Shown here piece by piece: positions 3,284 through 52,127 of a DNA stretch of 64,000 nucleotides. The first letter of the stretch is position 1. The number at the start of each line of letters is the position of its first letter. The translations under genes were made by a program, and so were the position numbers. This DNA comes from an uncultured virus (IMG/VR IMGVR_UViG_3300006990_000025) (taxonomy: Duplodnaviria > Heunggongvirae > Uroviricota > Caudoviricetes), in the IMG/VR virus record IMGVR_UViG_3300006990_000025; one strand, 5' to 3'. A model generated the notes under the pieces. That model ran no database searches. It worked only from the letters and a program-made list of their open reading frames with translations, and was not told the origin of the DNA.

Positions 3284-3517
3284 CTATTTTAAAGGCATTC
3301 TTGCTTGATGTAGTTCTAAATAAGGAGCGTCGTTTGATATGCCCTCTTCTTCCATCCAGTACAATTTAACCTTGCATATATTACAAATTGGGCGGTTAAA
3401 AATCTGATATTTTATAATGGCTATCGGGTTGAATACCATCGAGAACACAGATACAGAAGCCCACCCACACTTGCAGGGGCGTTTAATATCCTTCATGCTT
3501 TGAATTAATCCACTCAT
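3284..3517 (-). CDS. hypothetical Zn-ribbon protein
   Basis: CKCG...CNIC motifs; GAGG ribosome-binding site upstream. Confidence 0.6.
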   Translation of the reverse strand: MSGLIQSMKDIKRPCKCGWASVSVFSMVFNPIAIIKYQIFNRPICNICKVKLYWMEEEGISNDAPYLELHQARMPLK

Positions 3518-3889
3518 CTTTTAATCCCTCATCCAAAAATCTCTGTCATTTGTTAGTTCGTTCATTAAGGCTTCAAACTCGGTTTGTGTCAGGTCGGTTA
3601 CTACTCTGCTCATGTATCTCCATACTGGCACTCCTATATAAGCATGTCGCCTACCGTTTTACCTATATAAACTTTTAGCAAACCTTATATACCCCCAAAA
3701 TCTTTATATACCCCCATATAGTAGCATGTATGAGAGCGGAGAACCGGACACCCCTGAATCAGGCACGGGGGGAGATTGCTACTATACTTTTTAGGTATAT
3801 AAACTTTTCGCAAGACTTATATAGTATAAAAATCTTTATATACCGTCAGTTATATGCTCAACATGACCGGCTTGTTGGGAGGCGAGCGC

Positions 3890-4134
3890 ACCCCTGCACC
3901 CGCCCCCCTGAGCCTGTGAATAAGAAGCGTGCCTTCATGCCCGTATGTCGCAAGCAATCTCTAACGGGTGCGAGCCGTTAGAACCCCATACCCCGAAGGT
4001 CGCACCCTCGTAACATAGTGGGTGGGGTTGGCAGTCGGTGTGGTGTCCAACTTTTACGCCGTGTGACACCCGCCCAACTCCGGCTTTTCCATCACCGGAG
4101 GGAACTTTCATCTATTGATTGGGTCGGGTACAAA
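3890..4134 (-). ncRNA. candidate structured ncRNA
   Basis: A standard viral promoter (4151-4171) has no ATG at the usual distance. The region is GC-rich with several perfect stems (CUCCGG/CCGGAG, GGUGUC/GACACC, AACCCCA/UGGGGUU, UCUAACGG/CCGUUAGA) and a C-UUCG-G tetraloop. Confidence 0.55.
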
Positions 4135-4173
4135 TGTTCCTGTGCATACTCCTATATAAGCATGTCGTCTATA

Positions 4174-4356
4174 TCAGGGGTATTTGTAACAAAACCTGCA
4201 CCTGTGGTTATTGCCGGTGTCTATATCAATTTGAATCGCCCCTTCTTTGTTGCTCACGCATTCAACATAAGGACACGGGAAAATTTTCTCCCCAGTATCA
4301 ACACAATAGTAAGACGGGCGGTTATTGGGATTCATAGAGTAAAACCAGTGGGTCAT
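4174..4356 (-). CDS. small Cys-rich hypothetical protein
   Basis: 60 aa ORF with CPYVEC and CRFC; last gene of a small operon driven from the promoter at about 4622. Confidence 0.55.
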   Translation of the reverse strand: MTHWFYSMNPNNRPSYYCVDTGEKIFPCPYVECVSNKEGAIQIDIDTGNNHRCRFCYKYP

Positions 4357-4937
4357 TCAAACACCCGCCTCTTTTTTGTCCTGTTGTCTTTTCTCCCATG
4401 CGTGATAACATGGGGAAGGGTCACATCTTGTTGATGACTTGCCACACTTACAACAAATTAAGACCACTTCAAGCACCCGCCTCAATAATTTCAATAATCC
4501 TTATTTTGTGATAGATTTCCTTTATCATTTCCTCAACTTCAAGGATTCGCTTTTCCATCATTTCTTTGTTCTCAGGTCGGTAAATTGGAGTTCTGCTCAT
4601 GTATCTCCATAAGGCCACTACTATATAAGCATACCTATAATAAAAATGCTTATATACTACTACCCGCTACGATAGAATAAGGGGGATTGAAGGCCACCTG
4701 ACTAAGGCACGGGGGGAGGGTGAGATAATTTTTTAGGGGTTATAAACTTTTCGCAAACTATATATAGTAGTTGTATATAACAAAAAGATTATATACCCCC
4801 AGTTATATGCTTACTACATGCGGGCGGTCTTGCCGTCAGGCCGACCCGATAAAAAAAAGCCCCCACCCATCCCGCAGGATGAGCAGGGGCAGTTATAACC
4901 CGCAGGTTATACCATCAATAATTTGGGGCGGTTGCCC

Positions 4938-5708: not shown

Positions 5709-6096
5709 GTTATAGACCATGAGGCACTACTACTTAAAGGTGTCTATATAGAAAATCTTTATATAGTAATACTTACAGGACCATATAAGCACGGGCTGAA
5801 AACCGGCTGACTAAGGCACGGGGGGAGATTCCGTCTTTAGTATAGGGGTTATAAAGTTTTCGCAAACCTTATATAGTATATCAGATTTTAACAATATATC
5901 AAAAAGACTATATACCCCCCGTGTCATAGGCGTATCATGCGGGTGGCCTATCGAAAGCCGACCCAACAAAAAAAGAGAACCCCCCGCCCGTGAGCCGGTG
6001 GGCGAGGGATTCAATTTTTTGATTTTTTCTTTTGTGTTTTTTTTCTAATCCTCCTATGATTTTTATTTGAATTTCAGGCGTTTAATGTGGTCTATC

Positions 6097-6597: not shown

Positions 6598-6977
6598 GAT
6601 TAGTCCTATAGGTGTTCGGCACATAAAGGTTTCGGTCATAAAGTGCGTTTTTAGCGTTTTTAGGTTTATTTTTTGGTCGCCAAAGTCAAAAAAATGGGTT
6701 CAAAATGACCTGATATTTTACCGGCAAAAAGTCAAAAAAGTATATAATAAAAACCTTTATAGACCCCCATATGTTAGACTATGAGGGGCGGGCAAATATC
6801 CGCCAAACTTGATACTGTTTTGATATTTTTTTATAGGGTTATAAGTCTTTCGCAAACCTTATATAGTAGGATAAAAAACCTCTATAGAAGCAAACCTTTA
6901 TAGACCCCCAGTGATATTTAACAACTAAGCGGAGCGAGGCCGTGAGGCTGATTTCGTTACATGATGCTTACATGCAA

Positions 6978-7069
6978 GTATCGGCTAAGTATCGGCTAAA
7001 CATGCTGCTTACGCTCAGGTATCGGCTAAGTATCGGCTAACCACCCAATATCTCGTAGGTATCGGCTAA
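6978..7069 (+). repeat. GTATCGGCTAA 11-mer, 5 copies
   Basis: Exact copies at 6978, 6989, 7019, 7030 and 7059. Confidence 0.95.
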
Positions 7070-7776: not shown

Positions 7777-7962
7777 TCATTCGGGGCAAGCCGGACAAAC
7801 ATACCCATTTTGGGTTTTAAGCCACCCCTTTTCAATCAGGTTTGACTCGCCTAAGCGACTCTTAATATCGCATATAATACAATCAATTCTTTTACTATTG
7901 ACAACATCTTCTCGCTTAATATATCGCTTCATACTTTCACCGAATCCGTCATCACTTATCAT
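7777..7962 (-). CDS. small Zn-finger protein
   Basis: CIIC...GW...VCPAC motifs; translationally coupled to the upstream methyltransferase. Confidence 0.6.
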   Translation of the reverse strand: MISDDGFGESMKRYIKREDVVNSKRIDCIICDIKSRLGESNLIEKGWLKTQNGYVCPACPE

Positions 7963-8803
7963 CTTTTATTCCGTTCAATAAGTGGGCTATAACATCAACA
8001 GTCCAACCGTCACCTATTAGGTCAGTGGCCTTTGATTTAATCATAGGGAAGTGATACCAAAGAGGGATGGTTTGCATCATCTTGTACTCCCTCAAGGTCA
8101 AATCTCTTATCGTGCCGTCGTGATTGGTTACAAACTGTGTATTCCAAGCGGCATATCCTCTCGCCGTTATCGGTACGGACTTTTCACCATCAACTGCAAC
8201 ATACATTGTTTCTTTTTTCCTCTCAACAAACGCCTGTTTCTTAGCGGAGAAATTCTCTTCACGCTTTGCATGTCTATCAACAATCATGTCAATGGTTATC
8301 CCCTTATCGTCAGGCATTTTATCCATCGGTATGTTAGTCCAATACAACCTGCGTCTGTGTTGTGCTGAAACCAACTTAGAGTTGATTAGTATCGGCTCAA
8401 CGCCCATTATCTCTGTTATGATTGCTTTGTCAGCCAGTTTCATACTCGCTACATTCTCTAAGAGGAAATACTTCGGCTTAACTTCTTTCAACAACCTTAC
8501 AAAATGATAGAACAGTTTGCTCTTTTCTCCTGTCAGCCCTGCCCTGCCCTTCATGTTAATGAAAGACAAGTCTTGACAAGGAGAGCCACCCATGAGCAAA
8601 TCTATTTTTGGTAAATCCTCGCCCTTGAGTTCTCTCACATCTCCAACATGTATTGTGTCAGGGAAATTATGCTGCGTGGCAGCGATAGCATGTTTCTTTA
8701 TCTCGCTCGCATAATAGTTATTATACTCAATACCTGCCTTATGCAAAGCCAACTGACCGCATGACAATCCATCAAACAAACTCAAAATATTTTCTAATAT
8801 CAA
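7952..8803 (-). CDS. DNA (cytosine-5) methyltransferase
   Basis: Motif I LSLFDG, motif IV GGSPCQ, motif VI ENV, motif VIII SAQHRRRLYW, motif X GDGW. Confidence 0.95.
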   Translation of the reverse strand: MILENILSLFDGLSCGQLALHKAGIEYNNYYASEIKKHAIAATQHNFPDTIHVGDVRELKGEDLPKIDLLMGGSPCQDLSFINMKGRAGLTGEKSKLFYHFVRLLKEVKPKYFLLENVASMKLADKAIITEIMGVEPILINSKLVSAQHRRRLYWTNIPMDKMPDDKGITIDMIVDRHAKREENFSAKKQAFVERKKETMYVAVDGEKSVPITARGYAAWNTQFVTNHDGTIRDLTLREYKMMQTIPLWYHFPMIKSKATDLIGDGWTVDVIAHLLNGIKDDK

Positions 8804-8910
8804 TCTATCAAATCCAGTAAATCGTTAAACGGTTTGTTCCAGTCACAAATAGAACAGAGTTCCTTCTTTTCGTCTGTTAATTCAGCCTTACATTCTTTAC
8901 ATTTTTTCAT
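8800..8910 (-). CDS. 36-aa Zn-finger protein (MKKCKECK...CSIC), not in ORF track
   Basis: Open frame with two CxxC motifs; overlaps both flanking methyltransferase genes by 4 nt (ATGA/TTGA coupling). Confidence 0.65.
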   Translation of the reverse strand: MKKCKECKAELTDEKKELCSICDWNKPFNDLLDLID

Positions 8911-9833
8911 TTCATTTCCTCCAATATGTGAACAATAGTATCAACATTCCAACCGTTGCCTAACATCTTAAAACGCTGATTATCGGACACCGACGCAGTA
9001 TAACCGTCAGGTAAAGTCTGCAACCTTTCAGCCTCAACCGCAGTAAAATAACGCCAGTCCACGCCTTGTTCTAAATCAACAAAGGCGTTTGGTATTCTCG
9101 CTTTAGGTGGCTTATTTGAAATCATAGAGTCTTTTTGCACCGTCGTTAAGCAGTATGCCTTATCCTCTCCATCTTTCACATGAAGGGATTGAGTATAAGG
9201 AACATCGGGGTTGTCATCCTCTCGCTTGCCAGTTAGGGGATTGATTTTCCTACCTGTTATGTATGAGGCAGTCCATGTCTTGTCCTTTTCCAACACATCA
9301 CTTAGAGTAATGCCCCTGTCTTTGGGTTGTGATAATTCCCAGTTCGCCCAATACATTCTCTTCCGTTCCTGTGCTGAAACTAACTTAGAATTGATTAGAA
9401 CGCCTTCCACGCCCATATTGTCATCAATAACCTTAGTCCACGCCTTACGGCTCATTAGGACATTCTCTAACAAGAAATACTTCGGCTTGTAGTGATTGAT
9501 AATATCAACAAAATCAAAGAACAACTTACTTCGTGGGTCATCAAAGTTTAGGTGCTTACCTTGATTGGCAAATCCTTGACATGGTGAACCACCCAAGATA
9601 ATGTCAATATCGGATAAATCCCATTCTCGCCAGTTCTTCACATCTCCCAAATGAATAATATCATCGTAGTTGCTCTGTGCCACCTTGATACAATGCTTGT
9701 CTATCTCGCTCGCATAATACTTACCAACGGGAATACCTGCCCTCTCCAATGCTACTCGACCACATGCCATGCCGTCAAACAAAGATAAGGCATTCAATGG
9801 TTTCTGTATCATCCAATTCCATTCGGGCTTCAT
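8907..9833 (-). CDS. DNA (cytosine-5) methyltransferase
   Basis: Motifs LSLFDG, GGSPCQ, ENV, SAQERKRMYW, EAERLQTLPDGYT and GNGW. Confidence 0.95.
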   Translation of the reverse strand: MKPEWNWMIQKPLNALSLFDGMACGRVALERAGIPVGKYYASEIDKHCIKVAQSNYDDIIHLGDVKNWREWDLSDIDIILGGSPCQGFANQGKHLNFDDPRSKLFFDFVDIINHYKPKYFLLENVLMSRKAWTKVIDDNMGVEGVLINSKLVSAQERKRMYWANWELSQPKDRGITLSDVLEKDKTWTASYITGRKINPLTGKREDDNPDVPYTQSLHVKDGEDKAYCLTTVQKDSMISNKPPKARIPNAFVDLEQGVDWRYFTAVEAERLQTLPDGYTASVSDNQRFKMLGNGWNVDTIVHILEEMK

Positions 9834-40508: not shown

Positions 40509-43500
40509 TCAAGGCCAACCGGCTATGCCTTCACCTGTATTTGTATTCTCACCGATTGACATTGTAGCACCGCCAACAAACGGATAATACAACTTACTTC
40601 CAAAGTGCGGGGTTGAATACCAAGACAATTCGTTAGTAGTCCATCGTAAATCTATTTCTCCGGCATTGTGTCCGTGAAACTTTTGATACCTCAACTGTGG
40701 AGAGGAATGAGTAAAGTCCTCATGCCCTGCCATAGTTTGAGCCGATGATGCGGGCGAGTATTTTCCAGTCCTTGAATCGTAAGCCATAGATGGCACAGAC
40801 AAAAATCTCAAATTTACATCACGGGCAACAGAACTAAAACTACCACTTGGTTTTGATACCTCAACTGTTGGGATAAATAATTCCATAAAATGAACCCGTT
40901 CACCATGCGCTATACTTACATTCAGTCCACCGTCAGGCCAACTCATCGTTATATTTTCATCAAAGCCTTCTAACTGTGCGCTAGATGGAGTTCCAACCCA
41001 TTGAAACGGTGTAGCAGTACCGGCTTGTGTTGCTTGTGTTCCAGTTCCAGTAAATACTCTTGGATTCCCTGTATTGATTCGGGGTATTGTAAAACCAAAT
41101 ACCATGTGCAACTCATCTTTGTCCGATATTGTGGTTGTCATGTATCTATATTGGTAATTAAGTCCGGCATATATACCATCCCTGCTTTGATTAACTAAAC
41201 TCATGTAGGACATTCCCGAACCCGATACAAATCTCTTAGACCAATCTTCTTTTGTTTTCCAAGATACAATGTATGATGAATACTCCGCCGAGCCTCCGCT
41301 TTGCCACCCAGTAACATAAGCAATATCATCTGTGTCAATGACTGCATCATAGTAAGTTATAGGATTTCCTGCAAAATCCGTATTTGCCCCTAAAATTATT
41401 GTAGCGTTTTCTCTATCAAATTCAAACCTTCCCGATGGTGTTAAGTCTTTAATGACTTTTCCATAATTTGCATAAATTGAAGTGTGACTCAAATTGCCAT
41501 AAGCAGTAGCAAAGTTGTAATTATTTCCGAGATTATAATTCGCCCCTCTATAAAATACAACGGGGAAGTCATCACCTTGTAAACACACTTTGGGTTTATC
41601 ACAATCGTATGTATAATGTCCTTTTGTCATAGTCATGGTGCTTACCTGTGCATCATTAACGGGTCGTCTTGAAACAACTTGCCAAGTTTTATTTTGTTGA
41701 AAACTTGAACCGCCGGTTGAACCGTTGCCCGAAGCCAACAAAGGCCATGATGTTTCATTTTCTAATTTTAATGTGTAAAGAATTTGACTCCCTGCCGGTA
41801 TTGCGCCATAATCACGCTCAACAACTCTGCACACTAAATGCAACCTATTTTTGGAGTCACAAACTAAACTTGGTTCTCTCAAATCCCAATTGTTTGACCC
41901 CCCAACCAAAACTGGCGTGTGAGCCGACCAATCCCAAGAATACACTAACTCCGGTTGGGTAGTAACTAAATCCCTCTTAGCGTATGTATAATACAAAACA
42001 TGCTGACCATCTGGTTTTTTAATTTCAACAATTGCATGTATTGTTCCGTTGCTATCGGAAGCAAATGCCGAACCATGTTGTCTGTAATTTGTTGGTGTGC
42101 CACCGACAATCACCTTCAAATGTGGTCCGACTTCATCTTTTCCATCGTGGATTTGATTATTAGTGACCTTGACTGACTTCCTATTCCAAAACAAGTCCGA
42201 ATGAGCGGGTTTAGAATAATGAGTCCATACTGGTATGTTATCTGTTGCTGATTTTGCTGAACGGTCTAAACTAAATGTATGTAATGTTCCATCTGGAGTT
42301 CTCACAATTCTTTGACCCATACCCAAGCCGTAACCATCGTCTAAGTTTGTATTAGCACCTGCGGTTGATTGATTATGTGTAGGAACTCCAAGATTTGAAT
42401 TTTGACTTCTTTCAAATGGTGTATATACAGTCATTGAAGTATCTTCATAACCACTTCCCCTTGCACTCACAATGCCTCCACTATCCCACACTGCCCTTAT
42501 TGAGTTAGATAGGTGAACATCAACCGATGACTGCAATTGTTCTGCCGTTGCTATGTAATCGTGCTTGTTCATAGAATCAATATTCCCAAGTAATGCCGGA
42601 GAATATCTTTCATTTGCTACATGGAGAGCATCATAGTCTGTTCCTGTATTTATGGGAATAGCCCCTGCATGGAAAAACTCTGTTGGGTGGTCTTTCCAAA
42701 ATTCTGAGAAAGTGGGTTGTAACAAGTTTGTTCCACCCGTCTTTCTTGGCTTGCCAAGTATTCTTGCATTGGCGTTTAATTCCGCCTGTCCTATTTCAAT
42801 TGATGACAATGTGGATTCCATATTCCAAAGATTAGTTCTAAGATATGGTTGAGCAATATAAGGTGACATTGAAGATTGAGCAAAATTAGTCGGTGTCTGT
42901 CCTTTTATTCTTCCAATCAAAGGATTGTTTTCTAAGTTGTATCTGTGCAACGGTAAATGTAATTCAAGGTCTAAACTATTCTTGGCCTTCGCTCTTGCTC
43001 TAACCTGTATTTTTTCAGGTATTAGTAATTCTAATGGTATCTCATAACCAAGACCCGCATTGACTTGCTTCCATACCCTGTCAGGTTTGAAAGGATGGTC
43101 GGATGACATTATACCATAATGCAACGGTCCGTGATGTGAAATACCAATCATACCACCTGTAAATTGACTAAGAGTTGCCCCCTCGTCGCTTACATCGTTT
43201 GCATAGAAGTTTTTCCATAACCCAGTTGATTGAGTTCCAATGTGAAGTCCTTGAACCCCAACTGCTTGAGGTTGATTTGAATAAAATTGAAGCCCGTTAC
43301 TAACTGTTGTATCATATAATCCTTGTTTGAAAGACCATCCCGCCCAACCCAATTCTTGATGTGGATTAGCACCTGCGCCAAAGTCAGCAAACCCAATTGT
43401 AGTAGGATTGTAATGTGTTTGGAATAAGTGCTTATAGACTGCATTTAAATTATCCCAATGACGGAGAATATCATACGCTTGATATGTATCACCCGTTATT

Positions 43501-46500
43501 GGATTCATCATAGAAAAGTTAATTGTCGGTTGATAAAACGGATAACCGCTAACTGGTCTTGTCAATTTTGCATCAACATAAAACATCTTATCTTCATCTT
43601 TTTCAACATCAATATTTGCATCAGTAAATAATTGAGTCATCAAGGTTGAAGGTGAAGATGTGGATTGTCTATACAACAAAAAATCTTCTAACTGTAAGTG
43701 TGGTAAACACTTGGCAAAATTTGGATAAGACATACGACACTCTGGATAAGAACCGTAAGTAATTGGTATTGCTTTTTGACCGCTCTCTTGAAACCAATAT
43801 GCCAACTGTGAACCCGACCAAAAACCAACATCACGCTTCCAATTGTGATATGAATTTCCATCTTCGGTTTCAACATCAAAAATGTATGGGTTTGATTGTA
43901 ACTCATATCTTAGTGTTGGTTTAAAGTCCAAAGTTATATTTTTACCATCTCTTGTGAAACTAAATAATTTAGAGCCTTCAACCTTTCTTGCTTTTTTGTT
44001 ATTAAATAATAACACAAGACTGCGAGCATAAGTGTCACCTAACATGAAATTCCATGTTGGAAGTCCTGAAAAATTTGACAAGCCCCCTACATAATGTGTA
44101 CCCGTTGCTATATCGGGCAAAGGTGGTCCACTTGTTGTAATTTCAACACCAAGAATCGGGTCAAAATGTGTAGTGCTTGTGTCGGCAGGTATTGTATTTC
44201 TTGATGAAATTATTGGCTTACATACCCCGTTGTGATAATAATACCCCGCAGGGCAACGGCCATTTTGAGCAATATCTGGTTGAGGCGGATAGCCGATTAA
44301 GGGTGAAGGGTAATCTAAAGTGGTGTCAATCCTATCACGATGAATAGCCAATATCTTCATTCTTCCATCTTCCATAATTTGAAAATCTCCAACATGAAGA
44401 GTCGGGTGTTTCATTGGTTGGTTGTTAGTGTTTAGAGAATGTCTTGGATGCTTCATAAAAGCCTTATTTTCGACACCAAGATAGCGCATAGCCTCTATCT
44501 GTGGGAATACCCATTCATGTACGCTCCAACATGCGGCAGGTTGTTGTACTCGTCTAATTTTGTCTTTATCGTAACCATGCGAATGAGCAAGGTCATATGA
44601 TTGATTGGAATTAATTTTTTTGATGAAGTTCACATCACCTATCAATGACTTCCCTAAATACCATTTATCCAAAACTCCTTCAACGGACATTTTTGTTGTA
44701 TAAAACGGGTCTTTGAATGGGGAGTATTTGAAAATCACCATCTCCGGTCCGTCAGGAATTGCAGCAGCACCGGCAGCCCCTCCGCCCGCTTTGATTTGTC
44801 CTGTTCCATAGATTTGTGAATTTAGATGTGCCATTTCAATAACATCGGTGGCAACAAATAATTCGTCATTAAAAACATCAGCCGACCAATGATGGGAAAT
44901 ACCCCCTTGTTGATAGAAGCCACCTGCCTCTATTGCGCTCGATAACAAAGGCACTTCGGCAAAGCCCGCACTGGCGAGCGGTTTGAATGGCGTTAGTTGA
45001 ATTAGGTTGAATTGTCTTGGCATAACACTATTGACACAATAACTATCATTTGTTGAATTTATTTTTGCTACATCTGCACCATCAACATAAATGCGCTCTA
45101 AGTCAGGGTTTAGTCTAAATATGGCATGATAGATATAACACCCCTCATCTTTTAAATTTAGATTGACACTTGTTCTTGCTTCCGGTGCATTTCTTTCTTT
45201 TGGTACTCCCAATTTTGAATTTGATGCTGATGCTGATGCTGACAATCTGGTTCTTGGTGCAAGACTAACTAACACATGATAATCAACTAATGGTTTATTG
45301 AATTTTGAATTTGTATTCGGTTGAGGGTGTGAATTTCCTTTTTCAACGGTGACTTCTTGATAATTAACTAATGCAGGAACAATTTGTATTTTAGTCGGTA
45401 TCATGTTTTTCATAAAGTCCTGACTCAAACTACTGGTCTTTGTATAGTTTCCTCCATTCAAATGTCCGTTATCTCCGAGAATATATCCCACTGGCTTAAC
45501 TAATTGTTGGGTTGTTCCGTCTGTTGGTGGAGTTTGTGAAGTGTCTAGTGTTATTGGAGTTGAACCACTTACCCATCTTGTACTTCTTCCAAGTGCAAAT
45601 TTACTAGCATTATCACTTCTAGTATCATTCGATTCATAATAACTTGCACTCTTAATAGAATCACGATTTCCAGTGGTAGTCATGGCCTCTGTAATTGGTG
45701 TGATATAAGCACCGTCTGTACCATATCTGTACGCTCTATCGGCTAGTGATTGAGTTCGATAGGCTTTACTGTTCCTTCTTGGCGAAGTTCCAGAATGAAC
45801 TTGAATATTTATACCTGCAAAAGTTCCTAAATCGTCATCCGACCAACCCGACTGTGCATCTTCCGATACGGACATAAAAGCAGTTGCCGTAAAGATTCCT
45901 TCATATCCTATCAAACCGCATGAGTCCATGACACATAGGTTGCCTAAATCGGGTCGGCCAAGTGGTCGCCAAAGCATTTCGCCAGCATCGGCAGGAGTAT
46001 TGTTTGAATCGCTAAGAAAATCATTAGTTCCAATGTATTGTATTGTTTCATTGAAAGGTATTGGTTCTTGGGGCATAGATGAAGTTGTTTGGCCGCCTAA
46101 TCCATCGGGTTGAGAAATGGGTTTGTAACTGCCACTATTAGAACCGCTATGTATTGGAATAGGTTGTAGTGATTGAACATTGATAGCCCAGTGTGCTGAC
46201 ATTGTGTAGGAGTCCTCCATAGCGGGGAGTTGCGATGGTAAAATTGGTTCGCCTGAATAATGCGTCATGACCGGACTTGAGTTAATTGAAACTCCATATT
46301 TGATATTGTGATTATCTCCATAAGTTGCACCCATGCCATTACTGGGTAAACATATTTTTGAATCATAAACTATACCCATTCCAGTTTTTAGAGGGTCGTC
46401 TGTATCAGTTACGGGTGCATTGTATCTCCCCGCATATACATCATGTGCCTCAAGTAAGCCGTTGTCATGCGTCATGCTTTGCGACCCATCGTGTTCAGCA

Positions 46501-47009
46501 CTGAATCTATGACAAGTATGATTAGCAGGTCGGCCTTTTCCATAAACCCCTCCGGCATATTGTTCATTATGAGCAACATTGTATCTCCCCGCTTTAGTGA
46601 ATGTCAAAGCAGTTCCTACTGGTTGAGTTCTTTTAGATACACTCCTACCATTTACGGTGTGTAACATCATTTGAGCATACTCTAAATCACCTGTTCCAAA
46701 GTTAAGAACTGGTGAACCAATGTTAAGAAGTTGTCCTTGAAAACAAACATTACCACTCGACAAAGATATGAAGTCGTCGCCAAGTGCGGTTGAATCATAA
46801 TTAGCCCCGCCCACAACTATTGGTTTGTTAGTTGATGTTGCTTGAGAATCGGCTTGCCATATACTTGAAGTAGCCAAGTTTTGCATTGGGTTGCCTGTGT
46901 CAGCCGTTCCAGTGTATAAATTGGCATCATTATCCGACCACACAACCGTAAAAGGCAATCCCGCTCTTGTTCCAACCGGCGGAGTCAGGTCGGTTAAAGT
47001 GGTTGGCAT
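40509..47009 (-). CDS. giant probable virion/adhesin protein with C-terminal beta-propeller-like repeats
   Basis: 2166 aa; blade-like repeats RTPDGTLHTF, SDSNGTIHAI, CDSKNRLHLV, SDKDELHMVF; late-type promoter GGTTTAGAACC. Confidence 0.6.
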   Translation of the reverse strand: MPTTLTDLTPPVGTRAGLPFTVVWSDNDANLYTGTADTGNPMQNLATSSIWQADSQATSTNKPIVVGGANYDSTALGDDFISLSSGNVCFQGQLLNIGSPVLNFGTGDLEYAQMMLHTVNGRSVSKRTQPVGTALTFTKAGRYNVAHNEQYAGGVYGKGRPANHTCHRFSAEHDGSQSMTHDNGLLEAHDVYAGRYNAPVTDTDDPLKTGMGIVYDSKICLPSNGMGATYGDNHNIKYGVSINSSPVMTHYSGEPILPSQLPAMEDSYTMSAHWAINVQSLQPIPIHSGSNSGSYKPISQPDGLGGQTTSSMPQEPIPFNETIQYIGTNDFLSDSNNTPADAGEMLWRPLGRPDLGNLCVMDSCGLIGYEGIFTATAFMSVSEDAQSGWSDDDLGTFAGINIQVHSGTSPRRNSKAYRTQSLADRAYRYGTDGAYITPITEAMTTTGNRDSIKSASYYESNDTRSDNASKFALGRSTRWVSGSTPITLDTSQTPPTDGTTQQLVKPVGYILGDNGHLNGGNYTKTSSLSQDFMKNMIPTKIQIVPALVNYQEVTVEKGNSHPQPNTNSKFNKPLVDYHVLVSLAPRTRLSASASASNSKLGVPKERNAPEARTSVNLNLKDEGCYIYHAIFRLNPDLERIYVDGADVAKINSTNDSYCVNSVMPRQFNLIQLTPFKPLASAGFAEVPLLSSAIEAGGFYQQGGISHHWSADVFNDELFVATDVIEMAHLNSQIYGTGQIKAGGGAAGAAAIPDGPEMVIFKYSPFKDPFYTTKMSVEGVLDKWYLGKSLIGDVNFIKKINSNQSYDLAHSHGYDKDKIRRVQQPAACWSVHEWVFPQIEAMRYLGVENKAFMKHPRHSLNTNNQPMKHPTLHVGDFQIMEDGRMKILAIHRDRIDTTLDYPSPLIGYPPQPDIAQNGRCPAGYYYHNGVCKPIISSRNTIPADTSTTHFDPILGVEITTSGPPLPDIATGTHYVGGLSNFSGLPTWNFMLGDTYARSLVLLFNNKKARKVEGSKLFSFTRDGKNITLDFKPTLRYELQSNPYIFDVETEDGNSYHNWKRDVGFWSGSQLAYWFQESGQKAIPITYGSYPECRMSYPNFAKCLPHLQLEDFLLYRQSTSSPSTLMTQLFTDANIDVEKDEDKMFYVDAKLTRPVSGYPFYQPTINFSMMNPITGDTYQAYDILRHWDNLNAVYKHLFQTHYNPTTIGFADFGAGANPHQELGWAGWSFKQGLYDTTVSNGLQFYSNQPQAVGVQGLHIGTQSTGLWKNFYANDVSDEGATLSQFTGGMIGISHHGPLHYGIMSSDHPFKPDRVWKQVNAGLGYEIPLELLIPEKIQVRARAKAKNSLDLELHLPLHRYNLENNPLIGRIKGQTPTNFAQSSMSPYIAQPYLRTNLWNMESTLSSIEIGQAELNANARILGKPRKTGGTNLLQPTFSEFWKDHPTEFFHAGAIPINTGTDYDALHVANERYSPALLGNIDSMNKHDYIATAEQLQSSVDVHLSNSIRAVWDSGGIVSARGSGYEDTSMTVYTPFERSQNSNLGVPTHNQSTAGANTNLDDGYGLGMGQRIVRTPDGTLHTFSLDRSAKSATDNIPVWTHYSKPAHSDLFWNRKSVKVTNNQIHDGKDEVGPHLKVIVGGTPTNYRQHGSAFASDSNGTIHAIVEIKKPDGQHVLYYTYAKRDLVTTQPELVYSWDWSAHTPVLVGGSNNWDLREPSLVCDSKNRLHLVCRVVERDYGAIPAGSQILYTLKLENETSWPLLASGNGSTGGSSFQQNKTWQVVSRRPVNDAQVSTMTMTKGHYTYDCDKPKVCLQGDDFPVVFYRGANYNLGNNYNFATAYGNLSHTSIYANYGKVIKDLTPSGRFEFDRENATIILGANTDFAGNPITYYDAVIDTDDIAYVTGWQSGGSAEYSSYIVSWKTKEDWSKRFVSGSGMSYMSLVNQSRDGIYAGLNYQYRYMTTTISDKDELHMVFGFTIPRINTGNPRVFTGTGTQATQAGTATPFQWVGTPSSAQLEGFDENITMSWPDGGLNVSIAHGERVHFMELFIPTVEVSKPSGSFSSVARDVNLRFLSVPSMAYDSRTGKYSPASSAQTMAGHEDFTHSSPQLRYQKFHGHNAGEIDLRWTTNELSWYSTPHFGSKLYYPFVGGATMSIGENTNTGEGIAGWP

Positions 47010-51348: not shown

Positions 51349-51831
51349 TCATTCTTCCTCTCGCATTTCTCTTAGTTTAGCATCCATGTATTTCTTACGC
51401 TCATGCCGCTTTCTTCTTTTTCTTTCTTGGCGGGTTTTATCAGCCCTGCCTTCGATTTTTTCATTATGCTTTTTGCCCGCCAAATGCTCTTTGTAATGTT
51501 TTATACGGTGACAATTAGAACATATTAATTGACACTTAGCAATCTCTTTTTCTATTCTCTTCCAAGAGTAGCCGTTACCAACAAGATAAGAAATTGATGC
51601 AACCTTGTCATCGTGGTTAATATGATGATAATCTAAAGCCCATGTTGCTATTTGACCCGATAGGCCACACACAACACAAGCCCCCTCCGCTTTTATCTTC
51701 TGGAGTTTTTCTCTTGTTTGCTTTCGTCGCAGTCTAACCTGCGCTCTCCTTTTATCAGCATTACTTTGATACCATTTCTTGTGATAATTTCGCTGATATT
51801 CTCTGCGTTTATCAGCATCTTTGAAGGGCAT
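51349..51831 (-). CDS. HNH endonuclease
   Basis: CVVCG...LDYHH...KCQLICSNCHRIKH; probable start MPFKD. Confidence 0.85.
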   Translation of the reverse strand: MPFKDADKRREYQRNYHKKWYQSNADKRRAQVRLRRKQTREKLQKIKAEGACVVCGLSGQIATWALDYHHINHDDKVASISYLVGNGYSWKRIEKEIAKCQLICSNCHRIKHYKEHLAGKKHNEKIEGRADKTRQERKRRKRHERKKYMDAKLREMREEE

Positions 51832-51842
51832 TAACGCCCGCC

Positions 51843-52127
51843 TCATTCATCAGCAAGTTTTGTCAAAATGATTCTTGGTTGTCCTTCCGAGTCAAGTTTT
51901 GATTTGTAAAAAGACATTTCATCCTGTGTAGGTTCTCGGCCTCTGTAAAAACCGTAAGCCAGTTTGATATATTCCTCTGTTGGAGTTGCATAATCAAGGG
52001 GTGAAGGACATTCATTTAGAATCTTAGGTTCGGCCTTTTTGGTTGGCTTGGTTGCTTTCTTTTCTTCAACAACTTTCTCTTCAACCTTTACTTCCGCTTT
52101 CTCTTCCGCTTTCGCTTTCTTAGCCAT
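51843..52127 (-). CDS. hypothetical Lys/Glu-rich protein
   Basis: 94 aa; C-terminal YIKLAY..GREP..E..FY motif. Confidence 0.7.
   Translation of the reverse strand: MAKKAKAEEKAEVKVEEKVVEEKKATKPTKKAEPKILNECPSPLDYATPTEEYIKLAYGFYRGREPTQDEMSFYKSKLDSEGQPRIILTKLADE

Follow-up and report, generated by a model that had tools for sequence, protein, structure and literature searches.

A perfect copy of a phage promoter with no recognizable gene behind it raises the question of what, if anything, it expresses. Such a copy lies in the DNA of an uncultured virus (IMG/VR record IMGVR_UViG_3300006990_000025), of which a stretch of 64,000 nucleotides, here called the window, was analysed. An earlier sequence-only reading had proposed that this promoter drives a structured viral non-coding RNA (ncRNA), and we undertook to examine the promoter, the DNA downstream of it and its relatives in other phages.

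The phage and its relatives

All genes and long ORFs of the window lie on the minus strand, its GC content is 40.7%, and its long ORFs are all open under translation table 11. Pfam and PHROG matches to a large terminase, portal, prohead protease, head protein and tape measure mark the window as tailed phage; further matches were to a helicase, an exonuclease and two DNA methyltransferases. Because the terminase is at most 31% identical to any of 50,697 phage records, we conclude that the phage has no cultured relative. At least half of the sampled words of the stretch under study were found in 13 runs, all labelled marine metagenomes, and the listed occurrences of the stretch in runs number 20, from 15 studies. 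The source is an uncultured marine tailed phage. Three IMG/VR fragments (G001, G002 and G005) represent the same phage. Closely related to it is G004, whose translated HSPs have a median identity of about 88%, and G003, G006 and G010 are relatives with 56-58% GC. Approximately 13 kb of the phage genome falls outside the window.

The promoter family and its leaders

The textbook promoter copy claimed by the sequence-only reading was confirmed on the minus strand (Table 1). Its 18-nt core occurs 10 times in the window with three or fewer mismatches, always on the minus strand, against 0.11 occurrences expected by chance, and none of 100 shuffles reached that count. A looser core, TTATATAG[GT][AG]G, has 14 minus-strand sites in the window, and the same motif stands ahead of ORFs in related IMG/VR contigs (41 loci). 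The 23-nt motif family is real and highly over-represented; from its position, conservation and contiguity we infer that it acts as a promoter.

Counting +1 from the G after TTATATA, the 14 sites fall into three leader types. At nine of them the ATG falls at +22 to +24; in three more the leader is GAGG-type and the ATG lies at +36; and two, namely the site studied here and one at 34524-34507, have TTTGTA at +19/+20 and no start codon. The usual ATG at +22 is indeed missing from the target, as had been noticed, with ATTTGTAC standing in place of the AAACATG context. A 14-nt inverted repeat (4129-4142 / 4175-4188, 79% complementary) brackets the promoter; it is probably incidental, since a natural variant of the unit (contig X16) does not have the upstream arm.

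Table 1. Features of the promoter-headed unit and its borders, in order along the minus strand
Feature	Positions	Strand	Basis or remark
23-nt promoter-like motif, perfect copy	4149..4171	minus	String TAGACGACATGCTTATATAGGAG; predicted +1 = G4152
GC-rich 5' body, predicted multi-helix domain	3945..4148	minus	5' end pairs with 3945-3955; MFE and centroid folds agree
TTTGTAC leader, +19 to +25	4128..4134	minus	Motif comparison; in place of the AAACATG of coding units
ORF58, the only sense ORF (58 codons, ATG at +42)	3935..4111	minus	Rejected as a gene
Predicted 3' domain with 14-bp G/C hairpin at 3878-3909	3860..3943	minus	Positional entropy 0.05-0.08
AT-rich composite intergenic repeat, ends the cassette	3652..3870	minus	Repeat comparison
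Next promoter copy	3630..3653	minus	Precedes a small gene with its ATG at 3613

The polymerase that would read this motif was sought in the window and in related records. Neither T7-type nor DxDxD motifs were found in the large ORFs of the window, T7 motif B/C patterns are absent from the window, and PF00940 had no match in eight related records (one of them complete), in a search run without a positive control. Two ORFans of 2166 and 735 amino acids had no Pfam, PHROG or PDB-sequence match. The 2166-aa ORF, encoded at 40509-47009 (minus strand) between the helicase and a glycosyltransferase, had no tblastn match among phages; it can be named as a purely tentative candidate for the polymerase.

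The body of the unit and its coding potential

On the minus strand, the promoter is followed by a GC-rich stretch, the hairpin at 3909-3878, the AT-rich composite repeat and the next promoter. That the predicted transcript is GC-rich in an AT-rich genome was borne out: GC content is 0.59 in 3901-4100 and 0.57 over the first 300 nt, compared with 0.407 for the window, and the GC-rich stretch runs to about 3860. The length of about 245 nt given previously was too short, and the unit is probably some 275-293 nt long (from 4152 to 3878-3860).

ORF58 begins without a Shine-Dalgarno sequence and without the AAACATG context, and in a search of 5.8 billion protein clusters its sole match was itself. 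That match, P0001, is an 87-aa public protein derived from the same DNA with TGA read as W; because the long ORFs of the window are all open under table 11, we consider P0001 a gene-call artefact of another genetic code, and an alternative code for the phage was rejected on the same ground. Six peptide seeds gave no relative among JGI metagenome contigs. The one seed match in GTDB genomes, of 16 residues in a Planctomycete MAG, lay in an unrelated 469-aa frame (40/75 nt) and was set aside as chance. The phase-GC spread of the stretch is 0.08 (p=0.54), which indicates no codon periodicity; for contrast, ORFs of G010 (58% GC) have a GC content of 0.65-0.77 at position 3 versus 0.39-0.52 at position 2. 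In the X16 variant, an insertion of 1 nt after 4004 leaves 36 of the 58 residues of ORF58 unchanged and results in a 44-aa frame. A conserved peptide starting from TTG 4133, which the sequence-only reading had named as an outcome that would speak against an RNA, was likewise not found: that frame has 13 codons here and is reduced to TTG-TAG in sister units.

We then looked for the body itself elsewhere. There was no homologue by blastn in 50,697 phage records or in 72,556 plasmids, by blastn and nhmmer in 41 promoter-bearing IMG/VR loci, in whole-record searches of 5, 1 and 21 records, in the syntenic small-gene regions of G007 and G010, or by tblastx in 112 loci totalling 505 kb. The body is present only in near-identical strains, and a covariation test on the target had no alignment to draw on, because none of these searches returned a homologue. 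A generic literature search (not by promoter string) returned nothing relevant. Two further ideas about the body were examined in the window: a diversity-generating retroelement (DGR) template was rejected, there being no diverged second copy of the body, and for trans-antisense targets no complementarity longer than 12 nt (E of about 0.9) was found anywhere.

Sister units that share the TTTGTA leader

In place of relatives of the body, we found relatives of its leader. ATTTGTACCCGACCC at the target and GTTTGTAGCCGACAC at the 34524 site are identical at 13 of 15 positions, and TTTGTA(G/C) stands at +19 or +20 in five further units of related phages (L034, L039 twice, L049 and L067), which makes the leader common to the target and six other ORF-less, GC-rich units of the lineage. 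This set of ORF-less units with a TTTGTA leader is defined in the present analysis. In every sister unit stops interrupt all three frames, and the bodies have 49-56% GC between flanks of 40-46%; the bodies are unrelated in sequence, except that those of L049 and L067 are 87% identical. The target resembles them in its consensus promoter, in TTTGTA(G/C) at +19/+20, in a body GC content (0.57 over the first 300 nt) that exceeds the surrounding 0.41, and in the interruption of all three frames. Because a convergent leader is not expected from random decay, randomly decayed genes are disfavoured as the origin of such units.

Right after TTTGTA, five of the seven units (L034, both of L039, L049 and L067) have a GUAGGGG-loop-CCCCUAC hairpin and CGAAG. 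The target has neither; at this place it and the 34524 unit have the related sequences ATTTGTACCCGACCC and GTTTGTAGCCGACAC, and the GUACCCG of the target sits in a long-range predicted helix. The motif CTTCGGGG is present in three of six TTTGTA bodies, but 10% of shuffles match that count. The L049/L067 pair (class A) has no compensatory pairs, two sequences being too few for a test, and Rfam gave no match to the sister units in eight loci at E values up to 0.1. Scanning for the promoter-plus-TTTGTA pattern yielded 35 loci in IMG/VR, comprising the known units and chance matches without the upstream half of the promoter, and four loci in JGI contigs, all of them known units. In L034 (reverse strand), the first 80 nt of the unit carry the TTTGTAG hairpin and CGAAG module in tandem, as TTTGTAGGGGAGTCAAGCCCCCTGCCGAAG and then TTGTGGGGAAGTAAAATTCCCTGCCGAAG, an arrangement that might resemble a protein-binding handle.

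The second TTTGTA unit of the window occupies 34524-34290, between genes for proteins of 616 and 663 aa. Next to it comes an AT-rich block (34303-33879) containing a CCCCCC/GGGGGG hairpin; this block is 96% conserved in L108, a 71.5-kb JGI contig, whereas the GC-rich body varies between strains; in fragment G001 the ATG of this body is ATT. Different relatives have different TTTGTA bodies, or a small ORF, at this site, which by such comparison is a cassette hot spot.

The predicted fold

Seven helices had been listed for the RNA. All seven can be written from the sequence and four are in the minimum free energy (MFE) fold, namely ACCCG-A-CCCAA/UUGGG-CGGGU, CUCCGG/CCGGAG, an AACCCC/GGGGUU stem and UCUAACGG/CCGUUAGA, but the fold as a whole was not confirmed to exceed chance: 3880-4150 has a z-score of -1.40, with 18 of 200 shuffles folding at least as stably. 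In place of the C-UUCG-G hairpin that had been drawn, the inner hairpin of the MFE fold is CGAGGGU/ACCUUCG with a GCG loop. The 5' body alone reaches a z-score of only -1.4 to -2.0. Moving the 3' end to about 3860 gives -2.90 (1 of 200 shuffles) or -3.21 (0 of 150), and folding from +1 gives -2.29 (50 shuffles); these better scores depend on a 3' boundary set in hindsight. Among 13 other 293-nt stretches downstream of promoters, z-scores ranged from +0.97 to -2.27, and as the last of these is coding, the folding energy of the target (-2.29) is low but not unique. The TTTGTA units are not uniformly structured either, as the sister units range from +0.64 (the 34524 unit) to -3.0, with L034 at -1.1.

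The other structural proposals fared no better. The pseudoknot, which would pair the CUCGCAC loop with upstream GUGCGA, was not upheld: of 150 shuffles, 33% contain a comparable 6-nt complement between loop and upstream sequence, and a variant change at 4001 disrupts the fifth pair of the proposed pseudoknot. A ribozyme found no backing in the covariance models of Rfam 15, with no match in the whole window at the gathering score and none in 3600-4400 at E values up to 10; ARAGORN called no tRNA or tmRNA gene in the window. The five natural changes known (4118, 4001, an insertion at 4004/4005, 3879 and 3872) are all compatible with the MFE fold, three being unpaired, one turning a G-C into a G-U pair and one being the insertion, at a hairpin loop. 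In this fold 38% of positions are unpaired. Five compatible changes out of five would arise by chance in roughly 3% of cases, a rough estimate for a fold predicted from this same sequence. The hairpin at 3878-3909 occupies the site of the intrinsic terminators in sister intergenic regions, and no U-run follows it here. We regard the structural claims as weak, as the fold does not stand out clearly from either shuffles or coding controls.

Behaviour as a cassette

Evidence on how the unit moves comes from variant contigs, each single and of depth below 5. A contig of run X16 (depth 4.7) matches 3730-4172 at about 99% identity, with three substitutions and one insertion, and beyond 4172, the upstream edge of the promoter, continues in 173 nt of unlike sequence. 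Other contigs, from runs X16 and X18 and spanning the next gene, change to another version of the promoter at 3615, the junction of leader and ATG. The recombination break-points (4172 and 3615, in these low-depth contigs) thus coincide with the repeated promoter module, and since the match to variant contigs stops precisely where the promoter does, we take the unit to behave like a cassette that is bounded by promoters and shuffled. Marine metatranscriptome contigs (runs X18 and X20, from one sample) span 3351-3615 and 4238-4401 and not 3616-4237, although contigs of this kind are informative about neither absence nor strand nor RNA ends.

A probable RNA cassette or a by-product of shuffling

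Of the earlier proposal of a viral ncRNA, what survives is a unit that a promoter heads and that lacks a credible gene; its fold, pseudoknot and ribozyme activity were left unsupported. Because a perfect promoter precedes about 290 GC-rich bases without a credible protein, we favour the reading that the target is a strain-specific ncRNA cassette. More fully, it may be an orphan early non-coding RNA cassette, self-contained and ORF-less, in a promoter-dense region of small genes, and we put the probability of this at roughly 45%.

Transcription of the target, the ends of the RNA, its fold and any function are what we infer, and the proposed course of events is conditional throughout. A polymerase reading the 23-nt motif would start at about G4152 and make an untranslated GC-rich RNA of some 275-293 nt; the G/C hairpin of 14 bp at 3909-3878 would set or protect its 3' end. 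The RNA would be made alongside the neighbouring small genes and would have a trans-acting role, most probably that of a stable RNA that binds protein or serves as a decoy.

A competing explanation, which we think unlikely though still worth serious attention, is that the body is a functionless by-product of shuffling, either a scrap imported from a high-GC genome or a fully decayed gene, and that any transcription occurs only because a promoter happens to sit in front of it. At 57%, the GC content of the body equals that of relatives sharing this promoter (56-58% GC), so that its composition, taken by itself, might stem from import and not from RNA structure. Its restriction to near-identical strains, the recombination junctions at promoter and leader repeats, and a folding z-score matched by one coding control are all in keeping with such an origin. 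Against it, the promoter matches the consensus perfectly, the TTTGTA variant of the leader recurs in six other ORF-less units, neither residual codon periodicity nor translated similarity (in 112 loci, 505 kb) betrays a former gene, and the cassette has been retained, about 99% identical, in another genomic setting.

The AT-rich repeat and a possible role in cis

The composite repeat at the end of the cassette holds two 56-nt direct repeats (3657-3712 and 3789-3844) of TATATA palindromes, together with the motif ATCTCCCCCCGTGCCT. Sister composites lie at approximately 5990-5730 and 4900-4640, with a partial one at 6910-6830. The two full sisters follow ordinary genes, with canonical intrinsic terminators just before them, and for this reason the GC-rich stretch can be said to take the place of a gene in its transcription unit.

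This layout brings up the thought that transcription from 4152 serves the AT-rich palindromic repeats at 3870-3652, whether by priming replication, by opening the DNA with an R-loop that starts on the G-runs at 3915-3895, or by insulating or attenuating the next promoter. In the T7 primary origin and in T4 oriF and oriG, promoters adjoin easily unwound DNA, and the order seen here, of promoter, GC-rich stretch with G6, G3 and G4 runs, and AT-rich palindromes, is reminiscent of them. In T7, promoters 1.1A and 1.1B are followed by an AT-rich stretch; in its layout the target also has a phage promoter upstream of AT-rich palindromic DNA, but 280 nt of GC-rich sequence intervene. In three other intergenic places no GC-rich unit precedes the same AT-rich composite, the G excess on the RNA-like strand is small (skew of about 0.085), and a better candidate for an origin or operator exists in an iteron array at 6978-7069 that is conserved in relatives. 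A role in cis is in our view a doubtful explanation.

The iteron, TTAGCCGATAC, has seven exact copies on the minus strand, five of them in the 92-nt array and two at 2325-2364, 4.6 kb away, where chance would give 0.49 matches with one mismatch or fewer. The relative G007 has the same word four times, and G010 can be aligned over the array region; we regard the array as a candidate replication origin or operator. A further repeated element, TTTCGCAARMCTTATATAGTA, has four plus-strand copies (3806-3826, 4749-4769, 5858-5878 and 6848-6868; none expected), each within an AT-rich composite. It contains the promoter core CTTATATAG, oriented against all genes; antisense promoter, binding site and polymerase stop signal are all conceivable roles for it.

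Finally, that ORF58 (4111-3935) or another short frame is translated seems highly improbable, for although a 58-codon frame opens with an ATG at +42, phage early genes are often ORFans and a public gene call exists for this frame, that call (P0001) is the same DNA with TGA as W, and ORF58 has no homologues, Shine-Dalgarno sequence, AAACATG context or codon-phase signal and is frameshifted in a natural variant.

Comparison with known systems

The closest parallel to the shuffling of such units that we can offer is the PeSL (promoter-early stem-loop) cassette of T4-type phages, described as modular (Arbiol et al. 2010, PMC2839356). In those cassettes, as at the target, a repeated promoter-plus-leader module lies in a region of small non-essential genes, and recombination between copies shuffles the units. 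PeSLs are sigma-70-like promoters with terminator stem-loops that flank protein-coding ORFans, whereas the repeat of the target is a 23-nt phage-specific motif and the unit carries no gene.

The protein-coding gene expected of a PeSL cassette or a moron is absent from the target. Phage morons are independent units of promoter, gene and terminator, with a protein gene and usually host-type signals. The target is like them in being an autonomous unit of foreign base composition between backbone genes, and unlike them in being ORF-less and using the phage's own promoter. GC-rich ncRNA genes in AT-rich genomes have reportedly been detected from composition by Klein, Misulovin and Eddy in 2002; the target, too, is an ORF-less GC island in an AT-richer genome, but its contrast is modest (57-59% versus 41%), and import from relatives with 56-58% GC would also explain it. 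Phages also encode decoy or regulatory RNAs, such as the solitary repeat units that act as RNA anti-CRISPRs and the put RNA of HK022. The predicted RNA would be similarly promoter-driven, untranslated, strain-variable and made alongside early genes, but it is similar to no catalogued RNA, and at about 290 nt it would be much longer than a solitary repeat unit.

If the target is transcribed and functional, then promoter-swapped accessory cassettes of phages carry RNA payloads besides small proteins, and the replacement of the ATG context by TTTGTA would be a simple mark by which to find such payloads in metagenomes. If it is shuffled debris, shuffling leaves behind transcribed junk that mimics structured RNA, which would counsel caution in composition-based ncRNA calls. 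Either way, the promoter family, its three leader types and the junctions amount to a transcription map of a widespread marine phage without a cultured relative.

A broader reading, rather unlikely in our estimation, is that the lineage keeps a dedicated class of promoter-bounded, recombination-shuffled cassettes without proteins, in which TTTGTA marks strain-specific, fast-evolving, trans-acting RNA bodies at hot spots. Such bodies would be, for example, decoys against host defence or against takeover targets, and the class, if real, would parallel at the RNA level the hypervariable early-gene cassettes known from T4-type phages.

Further features of the window and its relatives

Near the small-gene region, two adjacent paralogous DNA methyltransferase genes (phrog_116) lie at 7952-8803 and 8907-9833, and an HNH endonuclease gene is encoded among the head and connector genes at 51349-51846.

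The relatives of the phage also have a second family of ORF-less, promoter-driven units, class B, which is absent from the window (L054:2521-2835; L032:2200-2502 and L066:2195-2502, both on the minus strand). These units are about 300 nt long, with a conserved 3' part of 190 nt, and have no Rfam match; their folding z-scores are -2.2 to -3.9. Across the three sequences, 9 of 74 predicted pairs are compensatory, several of them in poorly aligned columns, and the clean case is the helix at alignment columns 184-193/310-320. The codon-phase GC spread of L054 is 0.19 (p=0.024).
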